In this document: in pieces, positions 18,384-64,000 of the stretch
How the letters are laid out: each line of letters starts with the position of its first letter
How positions within the stretch are numbered: position 1 is the first letter of the stretch
Assembly: GCA_014905635.1 (NCBI GenBank)
Contig: JABVCE010000021.1
Location: 620,001 to 684,000, forward strand
Source: Scenedesmus sp. PABB004
Taxonomy: Eukaryota
Direction of reading: 5' to 3'
DNA length: 64,000 nucleotides
Translations under genes and position numbers: made by a program
The notes under the pieces: generated by a model
What the model saw: the letters and a program-made list of their open reading frames with translations, nothing else
What the model was told of the DNA's origin: nothing
The model's database searches: none

Positions 18384-21512
<3,129 letters not shown>

Positions 21513-27066: not shown

Positions 27067-29597
27067 ATGGTGCAGGCCGCCGACGCGGGCGGGGCGGGCA
27101 AGAAGGATGCGGCCGCGCCTGGCGAGCCCGCCAAGGCCGCGGAGGAGGCGCCCAAGCCCTTCTCCGCGCGGGAGGGCATGGCCGGCATCGTGGCGCTGCT
27201 GGAGAAGAGCGTGAAGACCAAGGAGACGCGCCTGCTGATGGGGCGGCTCATGCGGCAGACGGCGCTGCTGCGCAAGCACGCGACCGCCGCCGACCTGGCC
27301 GCCTTCGTCGCCGCCTACCTGCCCGCGGGCAGCAGCTCGGGCGCCTTCCTGGCCGGCTTCGTGCAGGCGGTGCGGCGGCGGCGGCGGCGCGGCAGCGGCG
27401 GCAGCGCGCGGGCGGCGGGCGGCGCCAACCGCCACAGCGCCGCGCTCGACGCGGCGCGCTCGCCGCCGCCGCCGCCGCCGCCGCAGGACGCCGGCGTGGC
27501 GCCGATGGAGGACGACGGCGACGCGGCGGCGGCGGGGGCGGCGGCGGCGCGCTGCCCGCGCCGCCGGCGAGCCAGCTGCCCGAGGTCGAGCTGTACCTCT
27601 ACTTGCTGGTGCTCATGCACCTGCTGGACGCCAAGCAGTTCACGCAGGTGGGAAGGGGCCAGCGCCCGCAGCACCACAGCAGCGCCTGCGGCGCGCACGG
27701 GCGGGCCAGGGCGCGTGCGCGCCGGCGCGCGCCGGCGCGACGCGCTCGCGCGCCGCGCGGCCGCAGGCGCGCGAGGTCGCGGACGCGGGCGTGGCGCTGC
27801 TGGCGCAGCACAACCGGCGCACGCTGGATGTCATCGGCGCGCGGCTGTACTCGTACTACAGCTGGGCGTACGAGTGCACCGGCGCGCTCGCCGACGTGCG
27901 CAGGTGCGACGCCCCCGCGGCAGCCCGGCCGGCCGGCGCGCGGCAGCGGGCGCGCCGCCGGCCCCGCCGCCGCCGACCCCGCCGCCGCCGGCGCCGCGCA
28001 GCACGCTGATGGGTGCGCACTGCACCGCGGTGCTGCGCCACGACGCGGTGGGCGCTGAGACGCTCCTCAACCTGCTGCTGCGCAACTACCTGCACTACAG
28101 CCTCTACGACCAGGTGGGTGTGTGCTGTGCTGTGTGCTGTGGGTGTGTGTGCTGTGTGTGTGTGTGCGTGCTGTGTGGCTGCTGGTCGGTTGTTTTGGTT
28201 GTTCGTGGGCGGGGGAGGTGTGTCGTGAGGAGGCGGGCCAGGACGCGCGCTGGCGGCGGCGGGAGCTCGGGAGCGGTCGCCCACGCGCGCCGCCCACGCG
28301 CGCCGCCGCCCACGCGCGCCGCCGCCGCGGCCCGCCGCCGCGGCCCGCCGCCGCGGCCCGCCGCCGCGCAGGCGGAGAAGTTCCGGGCCAAGGCGCAGAA
28401 GGCGGACGTGTGGCGCGTGCCGGGGCAGTACGCGCGGTACCTCTTCTACCTGGGGCTCATCCGCGCGACGCAGCTCGAGTACAGCGAGGCAAAGGAGGTG
28501 CTCGGCCAGGCGGGGCGCAAGGCGCCCACGTCCGCGCACGGCTTCCGCGTCGCGTCCGCAAAGTGGCTCATCGTGGTGCGGCGGCCCGGCGCGGCGGCCG
28601 GGCCGGGGCAGCGCGGCGCGGCGGCGCGGCAGCGCCGGCGCCGGCGCGGCGCGGCGGCGCGCGGCGCCGCGGCCGCCCGCGCGCGCGGGCCCGCGCGCGC
28701 CCGCACCCGCGCCCGCACCCGCGCGCGCGCGCAGGTGCGGCTGCTGCTGGGCGAGGTGCCGGAGCGGGCCGAGTTTGACGCGCCCGGCATGCGCGCCGCG
28801 CTCGCGCCGTACTTTGCGCTCACGCGCGCGGTGCGCAGCGGCGACCTCGCGTCCTTCCGCGCCGCGCGCGAGGCGCACGGCGCGTCCTTCCGCGCGGACC
28901 GCACGTCCAACCTCATCACGCGGCTGCAGTACAACGTCATCCGCACCGGCCTGCGCCGCATCGTCACCGCGTACAGCCGCATCAGCCTTGCGGTGAGGCG
29001 GGGCGGCGGTGCCGCCCGGGTCGGGCAGCGGGCAGCGCGCCGCGGGCCGCGCCGCGCGCGGGGCGCGGCCGCCCGCGCGGCCGGCGCGCGGGCCGACACC
29101 GCCGCGCCGCCGCTGCCGCGGCGCAGGACGTCGCGGAGAAGCTGTCGCTGCCGAGCGCGGACGACGCCGAGTACATCGCGGCCAAGGCGATCCGCGACGG
29201 CGGCATCGACGCGACGCTCGACCGCGCGGGCGGCTTCCTCGCGTCGCGCGAGACCGGCGACCTCTACGCCACGCCAGAGCCGCAGGCGCGCCGCCGCGCG
29301 CGCGCGCGCCGCGCCCTGCCAGCCGCCACTGCCCCCTCCCCAAACACACACGCACACGCGCGCGCACACGCACACACGTTGAACGACGCCCTGCCCGCGC
29401 GCCGCCCCGGCGCGCAGTCGTCGTTCCACGCACGCATCGCGTTCTGCCTCGACCTCCACAACGAGGCGGTCAAGGCGATGCGCTTCGAGCCCGACGCGCA
29501 CAGGCGCGCCCTCGCCGCCGCGAGCGGGCGCAAGGAGGGGCTGAGCGCGGAGGAGATCGCGCGGGCGATCGAGGAGGAGGAGGACGACGACCTGTGA
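27067..29597 (+). CDS. RPN3: 26S proteasome lid subunit RPN3/PSMD3, 8 exons; apparent 1-nt frameshift near 27534-27538
   Basis: LPEVELY, NRRTLDVIGARLYSYYS, LLNLLLRNYLHYSLYDQA, QLEYSEA, IAAKAIRDGGIDA, FHARIAFCLDLHNEAVKAMRF. Confidence 0.95.
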
Positions 29598-58401: not shown

Positions 58402-58462
<61 letters not shown>

Positions 58463-58498
58463 TGCGCCCCCACCGCCGCGCCCGACGACATGGCGTAG
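56861..58498 (+). CDS. Hypothetical membrane-anchored coiled-coil protein, 3 exons
   Basis: Two hydrophobic segments and heptad-rich regions; phase-consistent introns 57740-57931 and 58154-58279. Confidence 0.65.
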
Positions 58499-58534
58499 GC
58501 GAGGCCTGTTTTTCAGTTCTGGCTCACTGCTGCT

Positions 58535-58795
58535 CCGCCTGCCGCGCCCTGCCTGCCATGTGTGCTTTGCCTCGTGCGCTCTGCCTGCTGCACTTTTGCT
58601 GCCGCGCTCTGCCTGCCATGCGTGTCGCGCCTGTTCTGCCGCGCCTTGCTGTGTGTTCTGCCTGCTGTGCTCTGCGTGCTGCGCGTGTCGTGCCTTTTTT
58701 GCCGCGCCCTGCCGCGCCCCGCCTTCCGCGCCCTGCCTGCCGCGCCCTGCCTGCCGCGCCCTGCCTGCCGCGCCCTACGTGCTTTGCCTGCTGCC
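58535..58795. repeat. Degenerate CTGCCGCGCCCTGC tandem repeat
   Basis: Multiple imperfect 14-mers, near-perfect at 58725-58776. Confidence 0.75.
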
Positions 58796-58796
58796 C

Positions 58797-59884
58797 ATGC
58801 TGAGCTCCTCAACACGAGCGCCCATGCCGCCAAGGGATGTGACGCGCGTCGGCGGCAAGAGACTCGGGCGGCGGGGGCCGCGCGCGCGCTGCGCGCGTGG
58901 CGCTGCGGCCGTCCCCTGGTTCACGCCCCCGCTGCCGCCGCCCCTGCCCGCAGGCTGCCTCTCGCCTCGCCGACCAACACCACGGCTGCTGCGCGTGCGA
59001 GCCCGCGTCCCGCCGCACGCAACGATTGGCGGCCGCTCTGCACCTGCACCTCCAACTGCTGACACCACCAAGGGGAGTGAGACGCGCGGGCGGCGGGGAC
59101 GCGGGCGGCGGCGCGCTGCGGAGGGGACGCGAGGCGCTGGCCACGCCAATGACCAACCTGAAGCGCGCACCGGGCTGGCGCGCGCGCTGCGCGCGCGGCG
59201 CTGCGGCCGTCCCCTGGTTCACGCCCCCGCTGCCGCCGCCCCTGCCCGCAGGCTGCCTTTCGCCTCGCCGACCAACACCACGACTGCTGCACGTGCGAGC
59301 CCGCGTCCCGCCGCACGCAACGATTGGCGGCTGATCTGCACCTCCAACTGCTGACACCGCCAAGGGTAGTGAGACGCGCGTGCGGCGGGCGACCGCCGCC
59401 GCCCTGCCGCCGCCCTGCCGCCGCCCTGCCGCCGCCCTGCTCACAGGCTGCCCCTCACCGGCATGACCAACCGCGACGGCGACCGCGACGGCGACCTCTG
59501 CCATCATCGGTCATCGCTCAACCATCAACCGCCACAATCATCGCTCAACCGGCAACCATCAACCGCCATCAATCATCGCTCAACCATCAACCGCCATCAA
59601 TCATCGCTCAACCGGCATCAGGCAACTGCCATCAGTCATCGCTCAACCGGCATCAGGCAACCGCCATCAGTCATCGCTCAACCGGCAACCGTCAACCGTC
59701 ATCGCTCGGGCATCTGTCAATGTTCAACAACTGCCAACCGTCAACCGTCAGCAGTCCCCCCCACCCCCGCCCCGCCCATTCCCACCCAACAACACTGCTC
59801 AGTCCCTTGCCCCCCCCCCCGCTCGCGCCGCTCTTCTCCGCCCTCGTTGGCAGCGTCCGCTGCCCAGAACGACGTGGACTTTGA
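58797..59884 (+). CDS. Putative orphan 4-exon gene with tandemly duplicated Cys/His exon (may be non-coding)
   Basis: Exons 58797-58838, 58954-59076, 59252-59368, 59447-59884 all join in phase 0 without stops. Confidence 0.35.
58880..59385. repeat. About 200-bp direct duplication (intron end + exon + donor units)
   Basis: 58882-59095 and 59180-59387 are near-identical. Confidence 0.9.
59503..59750. repeat. A/C-rich minisatellite, core TCATCGCTCAACC, about 7 copies
   Basis: Direct observation; composition differs sharply from the flanks. Confidence 0.9.
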
Positions 59885-60922
59885 TCCCCGGCGCCGGGGT
59901 ACGTCGGCGGGTGCCACGCAAGTGGTGCCCTCAAGTCCAAAGCCCGATCCGCCGCCCCCGAGTGGTCCGCGCGTGCTGCGTGCTGCATGTGGCGCGCGCG
60001 CTTCGCTGTCCGTGCATGTGATGCAACGGTCTGCTGCTGCATGGGCGTTGCACGTACGCTGTGTGTGCCGCGTGTGCTGCGTGTTGCACGCACGTGAATG
60101 AGCCCTGCCGCGCTCGACCCGCTCAACCGGCTGCCTGCACTACAACCACGGTGGGGTCGGGGCGCGCAGCGCGGGGCGCGGCTGCCCCCGCCGCCGCGCC
60201 TGCCTCTGCCCCGGCCGTGCAGGGCTGGCGTGCGTCTGGCGGGCGACGACGCGCGGACGACGCCACGCGGACTCCGCTTCGCGCACGACGCCACGCGGCC
60301 CACGCTGCTTGGACGACGCCAGCAATGCAGGAGCACGCGGCAGCAGGTGCGCGGGAGGGGCGGCTGCGCGCCCGGGCCGGCGGGGCCGCCATCGGTGCTG
60401 GCGGCGCCAGCGCTCGCCGCTTCATCACGCGCGCCTGCCTGACGCGCTGCCGGCCGCGCTGGTCGCAGGCTGCTGCCCTCTCTTGCGACGACGCCCCCAC
60501 ACCCGCCCACCGAGACGGCGTCGCCCCCTTGCGGCGGCCCGAGCGCACCCCACCGGTGAGCCGCGCATTGGCGAGCGCGCGGCGGCTGTGCCACAGCCCT
60601 GTCGAGCGCGCGGCCGTCGCGCCCCGCCCGCTGACACTCCGCGCGCCGCCGCTGCCGCACCCGTCGTGCCCTCGCTGCCCTGCAGGGTGTCGCCTGATGC
60701 TGATCAAACCCTCACCCTTTCCTTTCCCTCTTGCACTCGCACTTGCACTTGCACCTTCCACCCTTGCACCCCCCAAACCCCAAAAGTCTTGAATGCACCC
60801 CGGCGACAATGATGTCTAGGCCGCACAACAGCTCCCCAGCGCGCACACCCCTAAGACGCGCCACGGGGAGCACCGTGGTCATGGCCTGGTCGGCGTCCCG
60901 GGGAGGGCGTCAAGCACCCCCC

Positions 60923-60979
60923 GCTCCGGGGCCGGTCGCCGCCCCCTCTCGGGCCGAGGTTTGACCCCTCGCCGGAGCT
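60923..60979 (+). ncRNA. tRNA-like (mascRNA-architecture) mini-cloverleaf
   Basis: 7-bp acceptor GCTCCGG/CCGGAGC; 3-bp stem with 5-nt GG-containing loop; 4-bp stem-loop; 5-bp T-stem with 7-nt TTTGACC loop. Confidence 0.5.
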
Positions 60980-61140
60980 TGTTCATGCTTTGTTGGCTGC
61001 CGTGCGAGCGCGCGCGCTGCGTGCGCGTGCTGCCGGCGTGCTGTGCGCGCTGCGGTGTACGTGCGCGCTGGCCGGCCCTCGCACACGCGCGCCAGCAGCC
61101 AGCAGCGCTCTCGGCAGCAGCACCCCAGCAGCAGAGCCAG

Positions 61141-61145
61141 TTACA
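61141..61145 (-). promoter_or_regulatory. TGTAA polyadenylation signal (LON-N gene)
   Basis: About 50 nt after the minus-strand stop at 61194. Confidence 0.6.
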
Positions 61146-61193
61146 GTGGCCGCCGCAGCGGTGACAGACGGCGGGCTCGGGCCCCGCCGGCCC

Positions 61194-63694
61194 TCACGCC
61201 CGCCCGTCCCCCACATCTTTGACAGCCACCACGGCGGCGAGCACGCGCACGTGCTTGCGCAGCACCGCCGCGATAAAGCGCAGCCGCGACGCGACGCTGG
61301 CCGCCTCCAGCACCACCTGCCGCGCCTCGCCCTTGTCCTGCTGCTCGAGCGCCGCGACGACGACGGCGCCGGCCCAAGACAGCCGGGCGGCGCGCCGCAG
61401 CGGGGGCCAGAGCGGGTCGGCGTGCACGTCGAGCCCGTCTGACGCGGCAAAGGCATAGCTCGACCCCAAGCGCTGCGGCGGAGGCGGGCCGCCCGGCCGC
61501 GCGTCGGCGCTGCCCGCCGGCCGGCTGCCTGCGGCCTCGCTGCCGTCGCTGCTGCTGCTGCTGCTGCCGCCGCCGTCGCTGCTGCCGCCGCCGTCGCTGC
61601 TGCCGCTGCTCCTGCTGCTGCTGCTGCTCCCGCTGCTGCTGCCGCCGCTGTCCGCTCGATCGCGGTCGGCGGGGCCAGGCTGCTCCGCGTCGCTGCCGCT
61701 CGTGCCGACCGCGCTCAGCGGCGCCGCCGCGCCGCCGAGGCCCCAGCCGGCACCGCCGGCGCCGGCTGCGAGGCCTGGCTGCACCGGCGGCGGGCGCAGC
61801 TGCAGCAGTCCAAACGGCAGGGCGTGCCGCTGGCCCTTGACCCGGCTGGCCAGCGCGACCAGCGTGTCCAGCTGCGCCCACACCTCGGCCTCCAGCATGA
61901 GCACGTCTACCAGGCTGCTGCTGGCGGCGGTGCCGGCAGTCAGCTCCGCGAGCTCTGGCCCCTGCGCCCGCACGCGGTGGCGGCGGCGGCGGCGGCGGCG
62001 GTGCTCGCGCGGGCGGGCGTGGCGCGGCGCGGTGCGCCGCAGCGAAGGCGGCGCGCTGCCCGTCGAGCCCCCGCCCACGGCCGCAGCGCGCGCACCTGCA
62101 GCGCCACGCCACGCTCTGCTGCTGTGTTCAGGCTGACGATGCCATCATCATCCACCTCGCCCCAGCCGGCCAGCGCCGAGGGGGCGCCGCCGCCGCCGCC
62201 GCCCGGGCCCCCTGCAGCGCGCGCGCTGGCGCTGCCGCCGCCAGCGCGGCCGCCTCTGCCGCTTCCGCCGCCGCCGCGCCGTCGGACAGGCCCTGCCGCC
62301 CGGCGACGACGCCGTCTGGCAGCGGCAGCACCTGCGGGCGGCGCGGGCGGCGCGGGCGGCGCGGGCGGCGCGCGTCGGCCGCCGCCGTGGCGGCGCGCGG
62401 GGCGCCGGCGCCCCCGCGCGCGCACCTCCGACACGCCGTGGGCCGCGAGCTCCTGGACGAGCAGGTGGGTCTCCAGGTCACTCTCGCCCTCGCGCGGCCC
62501 CGGGCCCGGCCAGGCCTGCTGCTCCGCGACGCGCAGCTCAAAGCCGCGCAGCCACGCCCAGCTCGCGGCGGCGGCGGCCTCGCGCGCGGCCGCGCTGCCG
62601 GCGGCCATCAGGGCAGGGATGCCCGAGTCGCCCGGCGCCGCCTGCATGACCGCGGCCATCGCGCGCGGCTGCACCGCCTCCAGCGCCTCGACGTCTTGCA
62701 GCAGCTCCACGTCGGCCGCGCTCCACGGCAGCTCCTGCACGCAGCGCGTCACCTGCGGCGGCGCGGCGCGCGCTGGCTTAGTCGGCCGCGCCGCGCGGGC
62801 GCAGCGCCGCCCTGCGAGCGCGGGCGCGCTCGCCTTGAAGCGCGCCACGGCGGTCGCCAGCACGAGCAGCTTGCCGTCCCGCAGCCGCGCCGCGCGGGTG
62901 ACCTGCGCCAGCGGCGGCGGCAGCCGCGGCGGTCGCAGCCGCGCCGCGCTGCGCTCGCAGGGGCCGGCCGGCCGGGCGGCCGCCCCGCGCCGGGCGCCGC
63001 GGCGCCGCGGCACCGTCGCCCGCACCTGCACCAGCACGCCGATGAGGGGCGCGCGGGAGCCGCTGACGAGGCGGTGCTGCGGCGACCCCAGGCTCCTGCT
63101 GCCGCCCGGCAGGTACAGGTGCCCGAACAGCCACGGCCGGCCGGCGCTGAAGATGGTCTCAAACATGTGCACGTAGTGGGGCGCCATGACGTGAAGAAAC
63201 TCCTGCGCGTCCCCCCCGACGACGAGGTCGCGCCGCCGGCGCGCGCCGCGGGCCGCTGCGCGCGCCGGGGGCCGCTGCCGGCCGGCGGCCGTCCCACCGC
63301 TGCGCCGGCCCCGCACCTGCATGCACGGCAGCACCGCCCACTCGGTGCGCCAGAGCGGCAGGCGCTCGATGCGCGTGCCGCCCGGCGGCGCGCGAGTGCC
63401 GCTGCCACGCGTCGCGGCCGCCGGCTCGCCGCCAGCGTTCTTGAAGAAAAGCTGTGTTAGCCGCCTGGCTTGGTCCCGCAGCGCCTCCGCGCCGTTGTCG
63501 TGCTCGCCGGGCTCGCCGGCGGGCTCGCCGCGGGCCGCGGGCGCGCGCGAGCAGCGCCGCCGCGCCGCGGCGCGCCCCAGCGCGCCGGGCGCCCTGGCCG
63601 CCCTGGCGCGCCCGGGAGCCAGCAGCAGCGGAGCCGCTCGACCGCCGCTGGCGGGCGCCAGCGCGGCGCGCGGAACGGCCCCAGGGCCGCACAT
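61194..63694 (-). CDS. LON peptidase N-terminal (PUA-like) domain protein, likely plastid, multi-exon
   Basis: LPLWRTEWAVLP, LHVMAPHYVHMFE, IGVLVQV, DGKLLVLATAVARFKV, PWSAADVELLQD and C-terminal RQVVLEAASVASRLR. Start codon uncertain. Confidence 0.75.
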
Positions 63695-64000
63695 GGGCAC
63701 TGTGCTGCTGCCGCTGCTGCCGCTGGTTGCGGAGCGCAGGCGTGCCCTGCGCGCTGCAGGCGGGCGGCTCTGGCGCGCGGACGCCTCTCTGCACGCTCGC
63801 ACGCTCGCGGGGGTGTTACGACTCTCGGGCGCCCGCCGGGCGGCACACAACGCAGCACAGCAACGCTGCGCACAAAGAGAGGGTGCGCGTCTGGGCGCGT
63901 TTCGCCGCCGGCGCTCACGCAGCACGCGGTGCCGCCGCCGTGCCTTCTTGGTCTGATGATACAGCAGTGGTGTTGTGTGAAAAGAACACGCAAAAGCATC

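Follow-up and report, generated by a model that had tools for sequence, protein, structure and literature searches.

In vertebrates, cleavage at the 3′ ends of MALAT1 and MEN-β/NEAT1 releases tRNA-like RNAs, mascRNA and menRNA (Rfam family RF01684). The mascRNA fold is divided into the regions AS (1–7/51–57), DSL (8–18), AC (19–33) and TSL (34–50), and it dispenses with the eight linker residues of tRNA (PMC11693755). Its T-loop, U39–A43, is docked onto a conserved pair of guanines in the D-loop, G14 and G15, the second of which pairs with C41, and folding was affected only mildly in a C41U mutant (PMC11693755). Beside the cloverleaf, the MALAT1 module possesses accessory features, namely an ENE/A-rich tract protecting the new 3′ end and pairing between leader and trailer, as described in the available part of PMC8457004.

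In plants and algae the nuclear RNase P is a protein-only enzyme (PRORP), as stated in the available parts of PMC10941002 and PMC4919922, and Chlamydomonas is credited in the former with a single PRORP. The same partial text describes AtPRORP1 as binding the elbow via G18–Ψ55 and G19–C56, with G18 and C56 called essential for cleavage, and reports that PRORPs cut tRNA-like structures (t-elements) at plant mitochondrial mRNA ends as well as a nuclear tRNA-snoRNA precursor (PMC10941002). A tRNA-shaped cutting signal inside a longer transcript is what a mascRNA-type element of an alga would share with the non-tRNA substrates of plant PRORP and RNase Z, within the same green lineage (PMC10941002, in its available part). 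Those substrates are, however, organellar or true tRNAs, and none is reported in the available text to be a mini-cloverleaf devoid of linkers within an intergenic spacer of the nuclear genome. No description of a mascRNA-type element in an alga was found in our literature search. One RNase P review mentions both mascRNA and algae, in its available part as separate topics.

Here we analyze a candidate for such an element in a green alga. It lies at 60923–60979 on the plus strand of a 64-kb stretch of DNA, which is referred to as the window throughout and was analyzed as a whole.

Results

A linker-free cloverleaf with the arm lengths of mascRNA

An initial annotation had read 60923–60979 as a tRNA mimic with the layout of mascRNA. 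Reading of the sequence and evaluation of the structure confirmed its letters and pairing exactly, with 19 Watson-Crick pairs, 0 linker bases between the helices and all parts as it had written them. The whole cloverleaf comprises 57 nt, consisting of a 56-nt paired unit and a discriminator-like T at 60979. The acceptor-like stem is formed by the 5′ strand GCTCCGG (60923–60929) and the 3′ strand CCGGAGC (60972–60978), which enclose three hairpins in direct succession. The first is a D-like hairpin (60930–60940, GGC/CGGTC/GCC) with a 3-bp stem and the 5-nt loop CGGTC, in which GG occupies loop positions 2–3. The second is a shrunken anticodon-like hairpin (60941–60954, GCCC/CCTCTC/GGGC) with a 4-bp stem and the 6-nt loop CCTCTC in place of a 7-nt anticodon loop, and the third is a T-arm-like hairpin (60955–60971, CGAGG/TTTGACC/CCTCG) with a 5-bp stem and the 7-nt loop TTTGACC. 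Because every pair is Watson-Crick, both strands offer the same pairing. The acceptor is followed by the one unpaired T at 60979 and not by CCA. A CCA following the acceptor blocks RNase Z, so RNase Z would not be blocked at this site.

Comparison of the candidate with mascRNA revealed a near base-for-base agreement in region lengths, with AS at 1–7/50–56, DSL at 8–18, AC at 19–32 and TSL at 33–49, and the same total length of 56–57 nt for the compact cloverleaf. Common to both are the 7-bp acceptor, the 11-nt D stem-loop with two G, the non-decoding AC arm and the 5-bp/7-nt T-arm. The assignment to the mascRNA layout is thus upheld, both by the arm lengths given in PMC11693755 and by a full-length alignment to RF01684 (see below). 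Several details nonetheless differ. The AC arm of the candidate has 4 bp and a 6-nt loop, compared with ~6 bp and a 3-nt loop in mascRNA, and the D-loop GG is found at 12–13 rather than 14–15, a shift of 2 nt toward the 5′ side. The T loop reads U-U-U-G-A instead of U-U-C-A/G-A, placing a T at the position of C56 in tRNA and of C41 in mascRNA; this T is the equivalent of the mascRNA C41U mutant, and the exchange of U for C leaves only a G-U pair possible. All pairs of the candidate are Watson-Crick, whereas the acceptor/T stack of mascRNA includes four G-U pairs. The candidate is also devoid of the ENE, A-rich tract and conserved complementary trailer of mascRNA and menRNA, and its host is a green alga rather than a vertebrate. 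As for the A-rich tract, the 25-nt leader has 4 A and the longest A run in the 300 nt upstream is 4; the longest T run in the same 300 nt is 3, giving no ENE-like U-rich element, and an extension of the acceptor stem by leader and trailer would pair at no more than 3 of 8 positions.

The candidate was likewise compared with nuclear tRNA (RF00005). Shared features are the 7-bp acceptor abutting a 5-bp T-stem, the 7-nt loop of the U-U-Y-R-A type, the G-C pair closing the T-loop, the GG in the D-like loop and the one unpaired base past the acceptor. Unlike tRNA, the candidate has no bases at 8, 9 and 26, no variable loop and a D stem of only 3 bp, and its 4-bp, 6-nt-loop arm stands in place of an anticodon arm with 5 bp and a 7-nt loop. 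Measured against the consensus sequences, the T-arm (60955–60971) agrees with the B box at 9 of 11 positions, and the best A-box match reaches 7 of 11 and is misplaced. The 300 nt downstream contain no run of at least 4 T that could serve as an oligo-T terminator. The lack of an oligo-T and of an A box makes an independent pol III gene unlikely.

Background frequency of the fold in GC-rich DNA

The G+C content of the window is 77–82% in almost every 2-kb bin and ~80% overall. The window was scanned for a 7-bp Watson-Crick acceptor around three perfect hairpins that abut one another without linkers, and 60 block-wise dinucleotide shuffles served as the control. Nine distinct linker-free cloverleaves were found in the 64 kb, three of which possess at least 19 bp (at 20947, 29035 and 60923). 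The shuffles contained 1.53 linker-free cloverleaves on average, and 0.40 when only those of 19 bp or more were counted; 21 of the 60 held at least one of the latter kind.

The T-loop motif is considerably rarer. A 5-bp Watson-Crick stem with a 7-nt TTYRA loop occurs twice in the window compared with a mean of 0.20 over 1000 shuffles, and a TTYRA T-arm abutting a 7-bp Watson-Crick acceptor occurs once compared with a mean of 0.007 (7 of 1000 shuffles). A second T-arm-like hairpin, on the minus strand near 1514, was rejected as noise, with an imperfect acceptor and no cloverleaf fold (z = −0.10). In random 25-mers of window composition, two abutting perfect hairpins were formed at a frequency of 0.0085 (shuffled) to 0.015 (real), rising to 0.065–0.09 when up to 2 linker bases were permitted and to 0.14–0.17 with up to 4. 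The strict joint expectation for acceptor, TTYRA T-arm and two packed inner hairpins is ~1e-4, a figure that holds per window and has to be read against the very many windows covered by the wider scan. Since such folds are about six times as frequent in the real sequence as in its shuffles, a rough upper estimate of ~4e-4 per window was also derived. A relaxed version allowing G-U pairs and one acceptor mismatch was present in 329 of 1000 shuffles.

The initial annotation had called this exact geometry restrictive and had named shuffled sequence as the control. The control half-refutes that view: the bare geometry is common in DNA of this composition, as the 21 of 60 shuffles indicate, whereas the geometry together with the T-loop motif is rare, as the 7 of 1000 indicate.

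Covariance-model and tRNA searches

In a 91-nt search, which employs the laxest filters, RF01684 aligned to 60923–60978 over all 56 model positions with a score of 19.8 bits and E = 0.034, an E-value that spans 91 nt × 4227 families. It was the best-scoring Rfam family for the cloverleaf stretch in this search, and two of the six model AC pairs are non-standard at the cloverleaf. The gathering threshold of RF01684 is 42.5 bits, so that the score falls below it by more than half. The match was absent from the 501-nt and 2851-nt searches (E ≤ 10, tighter filters), the former of which returned just two unrelated weak matches, and no Rfam family was recovered at gathering thresholds across the 64-kb window. 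Other weak Rfam matches in the surrounding spacer (mir-3347, Pseudomonas P5, archaeal sR1/sR32 and WT1-AS) score far below threshold and were set aside as chance.

Calculated from the E-value, RF01684 alone would be matched at this score ~0.006 times in each 64-kb window, corresponding to about one match per 11 Mb, a rate that agrees with the shuffle estimate for acceptor plus T-arm. At this rate, any algal genome is expected to hold several ~20-bit matches. Equally small searches at 20947 and 29035, where the remaining cloverleaves of 19 bp or more are located, gave no RF01684 match; the resemblance is therefore specific to the site at 60923 and not generic to GC-rich cloverleaves.

tRNA detectors gave a uniform outcome. 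ARAGORN predicted 0 tRNA genes in the 64-kb window, and at 100, 95, 90, 85 and 80% of its default thresholds it reported 0, 4, 30, 111 and 288 pseudo-genes, respectively; the cloverleaf site was first called at 80%, and with other ends (60895–60979). RF00005 had no match at E ≤ 10 in either the 91-nt or the 501-nt search. The Rfam tRNA model to which the initial annotation had pointed thus fails to detect the cloverleaf at E ≤ 10, as does ARAGORN at its default.

The spacer and its convergent genes

The cloverleaf is located near the right end of a non-coding spacer of ~2.7 kb (58499–61193) between two convergent genes, the largest non-coding spacer in the window. The spacer displays no codon periodicity, has a reduced G+C content of 0.56–0.78, is mostly C-rich on the plus strand and holds several tandem and dispersed repeats, including a 218-bp duplication. 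Codon-position G+C indicates that the plus strand is coding up to ~58.4–58.5 kb and the minus strand from ~61.1–61.2 kb. The upstream gene, on the plus strand, encodes a protein of coiled-coil appearance whose tail is an Ala-Pro repeat, and ends with the stop codon TAG at 58496–58498, 2.4 kb before the cloverleaf. The downstream gene, on the minus strand, encodes a LON substrate-binding-domain protein. Its sole homologue found is a Tetradesmus obliquus protein with PF02190 (OEZ86_001925; 44% identity), Tetradesmus belonging to the Chlorophyceae, Sphaeropleales, which supports an algal source of the DNA; alignments to this homologue define the introns and reveal a complete C-terminus with the stop codon at 61194–61196. 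Pfam searches of the raw ORF translations of the neighboring genes gave 0 families, because introns interrupt the domains. A scan of 60500–61300 for promoters and terminators, which is of the bacterial type and not designed for eukaryotes, gave 0 and 0.

TGTAA is the poly(A) signal of chlorophycean algae. Seven copies are present in the window, and on a rough reading at least four of them lie within ~250 nt after the end of a coding run on the same strand. The one at 61141–61145 on the minus strand is the only TGTAA in 55–64 kb; it is situated 49–53 nt past the stop codon of the LON-domain gene and is likely the poly(A) signal of that gene, which would place the probable end of the minus-strand mRNA ~140 nt short of the cloverleaf. 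On the plus strand, no TGTAA occurs from the stop codon of the upstream gene to the end of the window. GC skew averages −0.07 in 46 intron-like segments of plus-strand genes and +0.07 in 28 of minus-strand genes (sd 0.12–0.16). Introns are thus weakly C-rich on the sense strand, and the C-rich plus strand of the spacer gives a faint hint of the strand that may be transcribed.

No second copy of the cloverleaf exists in the 64-kb window, and exact searches with a cloverleaf 27-mer in metagenome contigs and a 21-mer in viral contigs each gave 0 matches. A search with the LON-gene exon at 62423–62752 (minus strand) identified 0 relatives among 470 pattern matches in metagenome contigs. In prokaryote contigs the same exon gave 1 weak match among 330 pattern matches (Thermoleophilia MAG, 38% identity over 49 residues), which was dismissed as an Ala-rich chance hit. 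Around the cloverleaf, the search for target-site duplications and terminal inverted repeats yielded only short GC repeats at chance level. The sole flanking direct repeat is the 11-mer GCGAGCGCGCG at 60571 and 61004, and ~3 pairs of 11-mer repeats are expected by chance in 900 nt of the local composition by our estimate.

Folding alone and in context

The energy of the cloverleaf was calculated as −30.2 kcal/mol on the plus strand and −33.3 kcal/mol on the minus strand. Folded alone, the plus strand prefers a different structure (MFE −30.6 kcal/mol; z = −1.49; equalled by 15 of 200 shuffles), and the cloverleaf has an ensemble probability of 0.19. On the minus strand alone the cloverleaf is itself the MFE structure (z = −1.82; equalled by 9 of 200 shuffles), with an ensemble probability of 0.84. 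In context, the z values become −0.25 for the plus strand (121 nt, 60880–61000) and −0.29 for the minus strand (257 nt). There is accordingly no thermodynamic signal above chance.

Predictions with flanking sequence, which are weak evidence by nature, gave different pictures for the two strands. With 20–200 nt flanks on the plus strand, pair probabilities drop to ~0 in all four helices, and one long imperfect hairpin (~60898–60975) replaces the cloverleaf in the predicted MFE structure. The cloverleaf appears to be lost because the plus-strand segment 60898–60915, complementary to the T-loop, the T-stem's 3′ strand and that of the acceptor, competes for the T-arm side. On the minus strand, the cloverleaf is retained with 100–200 nt flanks (mean pair probabilities 0.75–0.92) and lost with 50-nt flanks. 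Weak as they are, the context predictions do not favor the plus strand, the one that gives the T-loop motif in its correct sense.

Discussion

The reading that we prefer, and in which we place roughly even confidence, is that the cloverleaf at 60923–60979 is a chance fold without a dedicated function. Perfect stems of 3–7 bp are abundant in DNA of ~80% G+C, and among the many cloverleaves without linkers this one happens to carry the T-loop-like TTTGA. The locus itself consists of short inverted repeats rich in GC, nested and clustered and largely of CCCCTC/GAGGGG-type words, in a convergent-gene spacer of a chlorophycean alga. From the observed structure, its background frequency, the weak scores and the absence of accessory signals we infer that the fold is non-functional.

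Some of the evidence runs against chance. With an expectation of ~1e-4 to 4e-4 per window, the strict combination would seldom arise by accident. RF01684 is the top family and aligns over its full length, the other cloverleaves with at least 19 bp are unmatched, the arm lengths are almost those of mascRNA, and the D-like loop carries GG. The position argues in the same direction, as the cloverleaf lies at the far end of the largest spacer, downstream of a plus-strand gene followed by no TGTAA, with a C-rich skew that weakly matches sense introns. A chance origin is preferred despite the figure of ~1e-4 because many windows were read, because resemblance at the level of the covariance model is expected several times per genome, and because the accessory features are absent. 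The functional half of the initial annotation, in which the element would mature the 3′ end of a transcript from the 58.5–60.9 kb region or form the head or tail of a SINE or retroelement, gained no independent support.

A genuine mascRNA-type tRNA mimic on the plus strand, serving PRORP and RNase Z as the signal for a non-polyadenylated 3′ end, is the alternative that survives best, and we judge it rather unlikely. A pol II transcript across 58.5–60.9 kb, whether an independent ncRNA or a long 3′ extension of the upstream gene, would fold the cloverleaf; the acceptor and T-arm would stack as a 12-bp helix, and the D-like GG would dock on the T-loop to form the elbow. PRORP would then cut at 60922/60923 and leave a non-polyadenylated 3′ end, while RNase Z would cut after T 60979 and CCA would be added, giving a small RNA of ~60 nt. 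The cut would also stop plus-strand read-through into the convergent gene.

Such a pathway is suggested by the mascRNA geometry (no linkers, the 7-bp acceptor, 11-nt D and 17-nt T stem-loops and the D-loop GG), by RF01684 as the best family with a full-length alignment, and by the strict chance expectation of ~1e-4 for this window. The lack of a plus-strand TGTAA after the upstream gene and of a CCA after the acceptor is consistent with it as well. By analogy with the plant mitochondrial tRNA-like structures and the nuclear tRNA-snoRNA precursor processed by PRORPs (PMC10941002, in its available part), a tRNA mimic could be workable in principle in the green lineage, although this candidate carries a T at the C56 equivalent. 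The mascRNA counterpart of that T, C41U, had a minor effect on folding (PMC11693755), but G18 and C56 are called essential for AtPRORP1 cleavage in the available text of PMC10941002. Other points weigh against a mimic as well. The RF01684 score is under half of the threshold, and the GG is 2 nt off the mascRNA register. Neither an ENE or A-rich tract that would protect the 3′ end nor a leader-trailer pairing accompanies the cloverleaf, features whose role is described in the available part of PMC8457004. The plus-strand fold is out-competed by its flanks in the predictions, and our literature search found no algal element of the mascRNA type with which it could be grouped.

A decayed tRNA-derived remnant, for instance a tRNA pseudogene or the tRNA-related end of a retroelement such as a SINE, which kept its T-arm/B-box and acceptor and is now non-functional, seems to us distinctly improbable. 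tRNA-derived SINEs contain a tRNA-related module with a B-box-like T-arm and are recognized by many dispersed copies, a tail and target-site duplications. The candidate likewise has a B-box-like T-arm, abutted by a 7-bp acceptor as in tRNA, and lies in non-coding, repeat-rich DNA with local duplications. It differs from a SINE, however, in being single-copy in the 64 kb, in having no A box and no tail, whether A-rich or of simple repeats, and in showing no convincing target-site duplication, the only flanking direct repeat being the chance-level 11-mer described above. The missing tRNA-model match and oligo-T terminator argue against a tRNA-derived remnant too. Moreover, the 25 inner nt fall 16 nt short of tRNA positions 8–48 and are nonetheless perfectly paired and linker-free, which would be unexpected from decay by deletion.

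A role on the minus strand or at the DNA level, as a fold in read-through RNA of the LON-domain gene ~140–200 nt past the poly(A) site or as cruciform-like DNA that would aid pausing or termination, is the least probable reading and in our view a very unlikely one, for although the Watson-Crick pairs are strand-symmetric, the site lies just past the likely poly(A) signal of the minus-strand gene and the cloverleaf is the MFE structure there (−33.3 kcal/mol, probability 0.84) and survives 100–200 nt flanks (0.75–0.92), its z values are unremarkable (−1.82 alone, −0.29 in context), the fold is lost with 50-nt flanks, no known mechanism using such a fold could be named, and the T-loop-like motif, the sole feature above background, reads correctly only on the plus strand.

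If the cloverleaf were a tRNA mimic after all, it would represent the first module of this type beyond the vertebrates, relying on a protein-only RNase P and needing no ENE triple helix. 3′-end formation by a tRNA mimic would then be an older or convergently evolved device rather than a specialty of vertebrate lncRNAs, and the locus would offer a simple experimental handle on non-canonical 3′-end formation in algae. If it is a chance fold, as we prefer, its value is one of calibration: DNA of ~80% G+C gives perfect linker-free cloverleaves several times per 64 kb and, with them being so common and a ~20-bit RF01684 match expected per ~11 Mb, shape alone should not count as evidence of a tRNA mimic in such genomes.

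Gene ends and poly(A) signals around the spacer

The non-coding spacer that contains the mascRNA-like cloverleaf (60923-60979, + strand) is bordered by two convergent genes. The + strand gene carries a (GCGCCC)x11 run at 58403-58469, shortly 5′ of its stop codon, which encodes the Ala-Pro repeat tail of its coiled-coil-looking protein. On the − strand, the gene at 61194-63700 encodes a protein with a LON substrate-binding domain and is interrupted by introns; gaps in the homologue alignment delimit at least three of these, which are GC-rich. Tetradesmus obliquus OEZ86_001925 (PF02190, 44% identity) was the sole homologue of the protein among 8000 scored candidates.

TGTAA, which we take to be the chlorophycean poly(A) signal, occurs only seven times in the 64 kb, five times on the + strand (4139, 16240, 21508, 29682 and 42486) and twice on the − strand (21174 and 61141). 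Many genes of the window are without any TGTAA; at least four of the seven copies lie shortly 3′ of the end of a coding run on the same strand, a placement consistent with a role of TGTAA in signalling polyadenylation and with 3′ UTRs that are short.

Repeats and hairpins within the spacer

The spacer contains a 218-bp direct duplication (58880-59097 and 59178-59389, 93% identical) and, at 59511-59703, tandem repeats with units of 35 and 63 nt that are CAACC/ATCA-rich on the + strand. On the − strand these repeats weakly match archaeal C/D-box snoRNA models whose thresholds are 40-45: sR1 twice, with 16.2 and 13.3 bits, and sR32 once, with 12.2 bits. These matches are probably noise of GATGA/CTGA-like words, and a snoRNA-like cluster is a conceivable alternative.

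The cloverleaf is flanked, at about −76 and +63 nt, by GC-rich inverted repeats of 14 nt (60834-60847 with 61042-61055, 93% complementary) and 11 nt (60836-60846 with 61061-61071, 100% complementary), which the − strand MFE prediction places as closing helices of a larger multi-branch domain. A long GC-rich hairpin at 61027-61123 (+) and the probable 3′ end of the LON-domain gene overlap. The hairpin's weak match to mir-3347, which scores 18.2 bits where the threshold is 124 (E = 0.4-2.3), was judged to be chance.

Other cloverleaf-like folds

A second T-arm-like hairpin with a TTCGA loop and an imperfect acceptor was located at 1498-1580 (−); it forms no cloverleaf (z = −0.10) and was rejected as noise. 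Two further perfect linker-free cloverleaves, each with at least 19 Watson-Crick pairs, lie at 20947-21009 and 29035-29089. Both are composed of GCC/GCG-type low-complexity sequence and neither was matched by RF01684, the Rfam mascRNA-menRNA model. The two illustrate the ease with which such shapes arise in the window.
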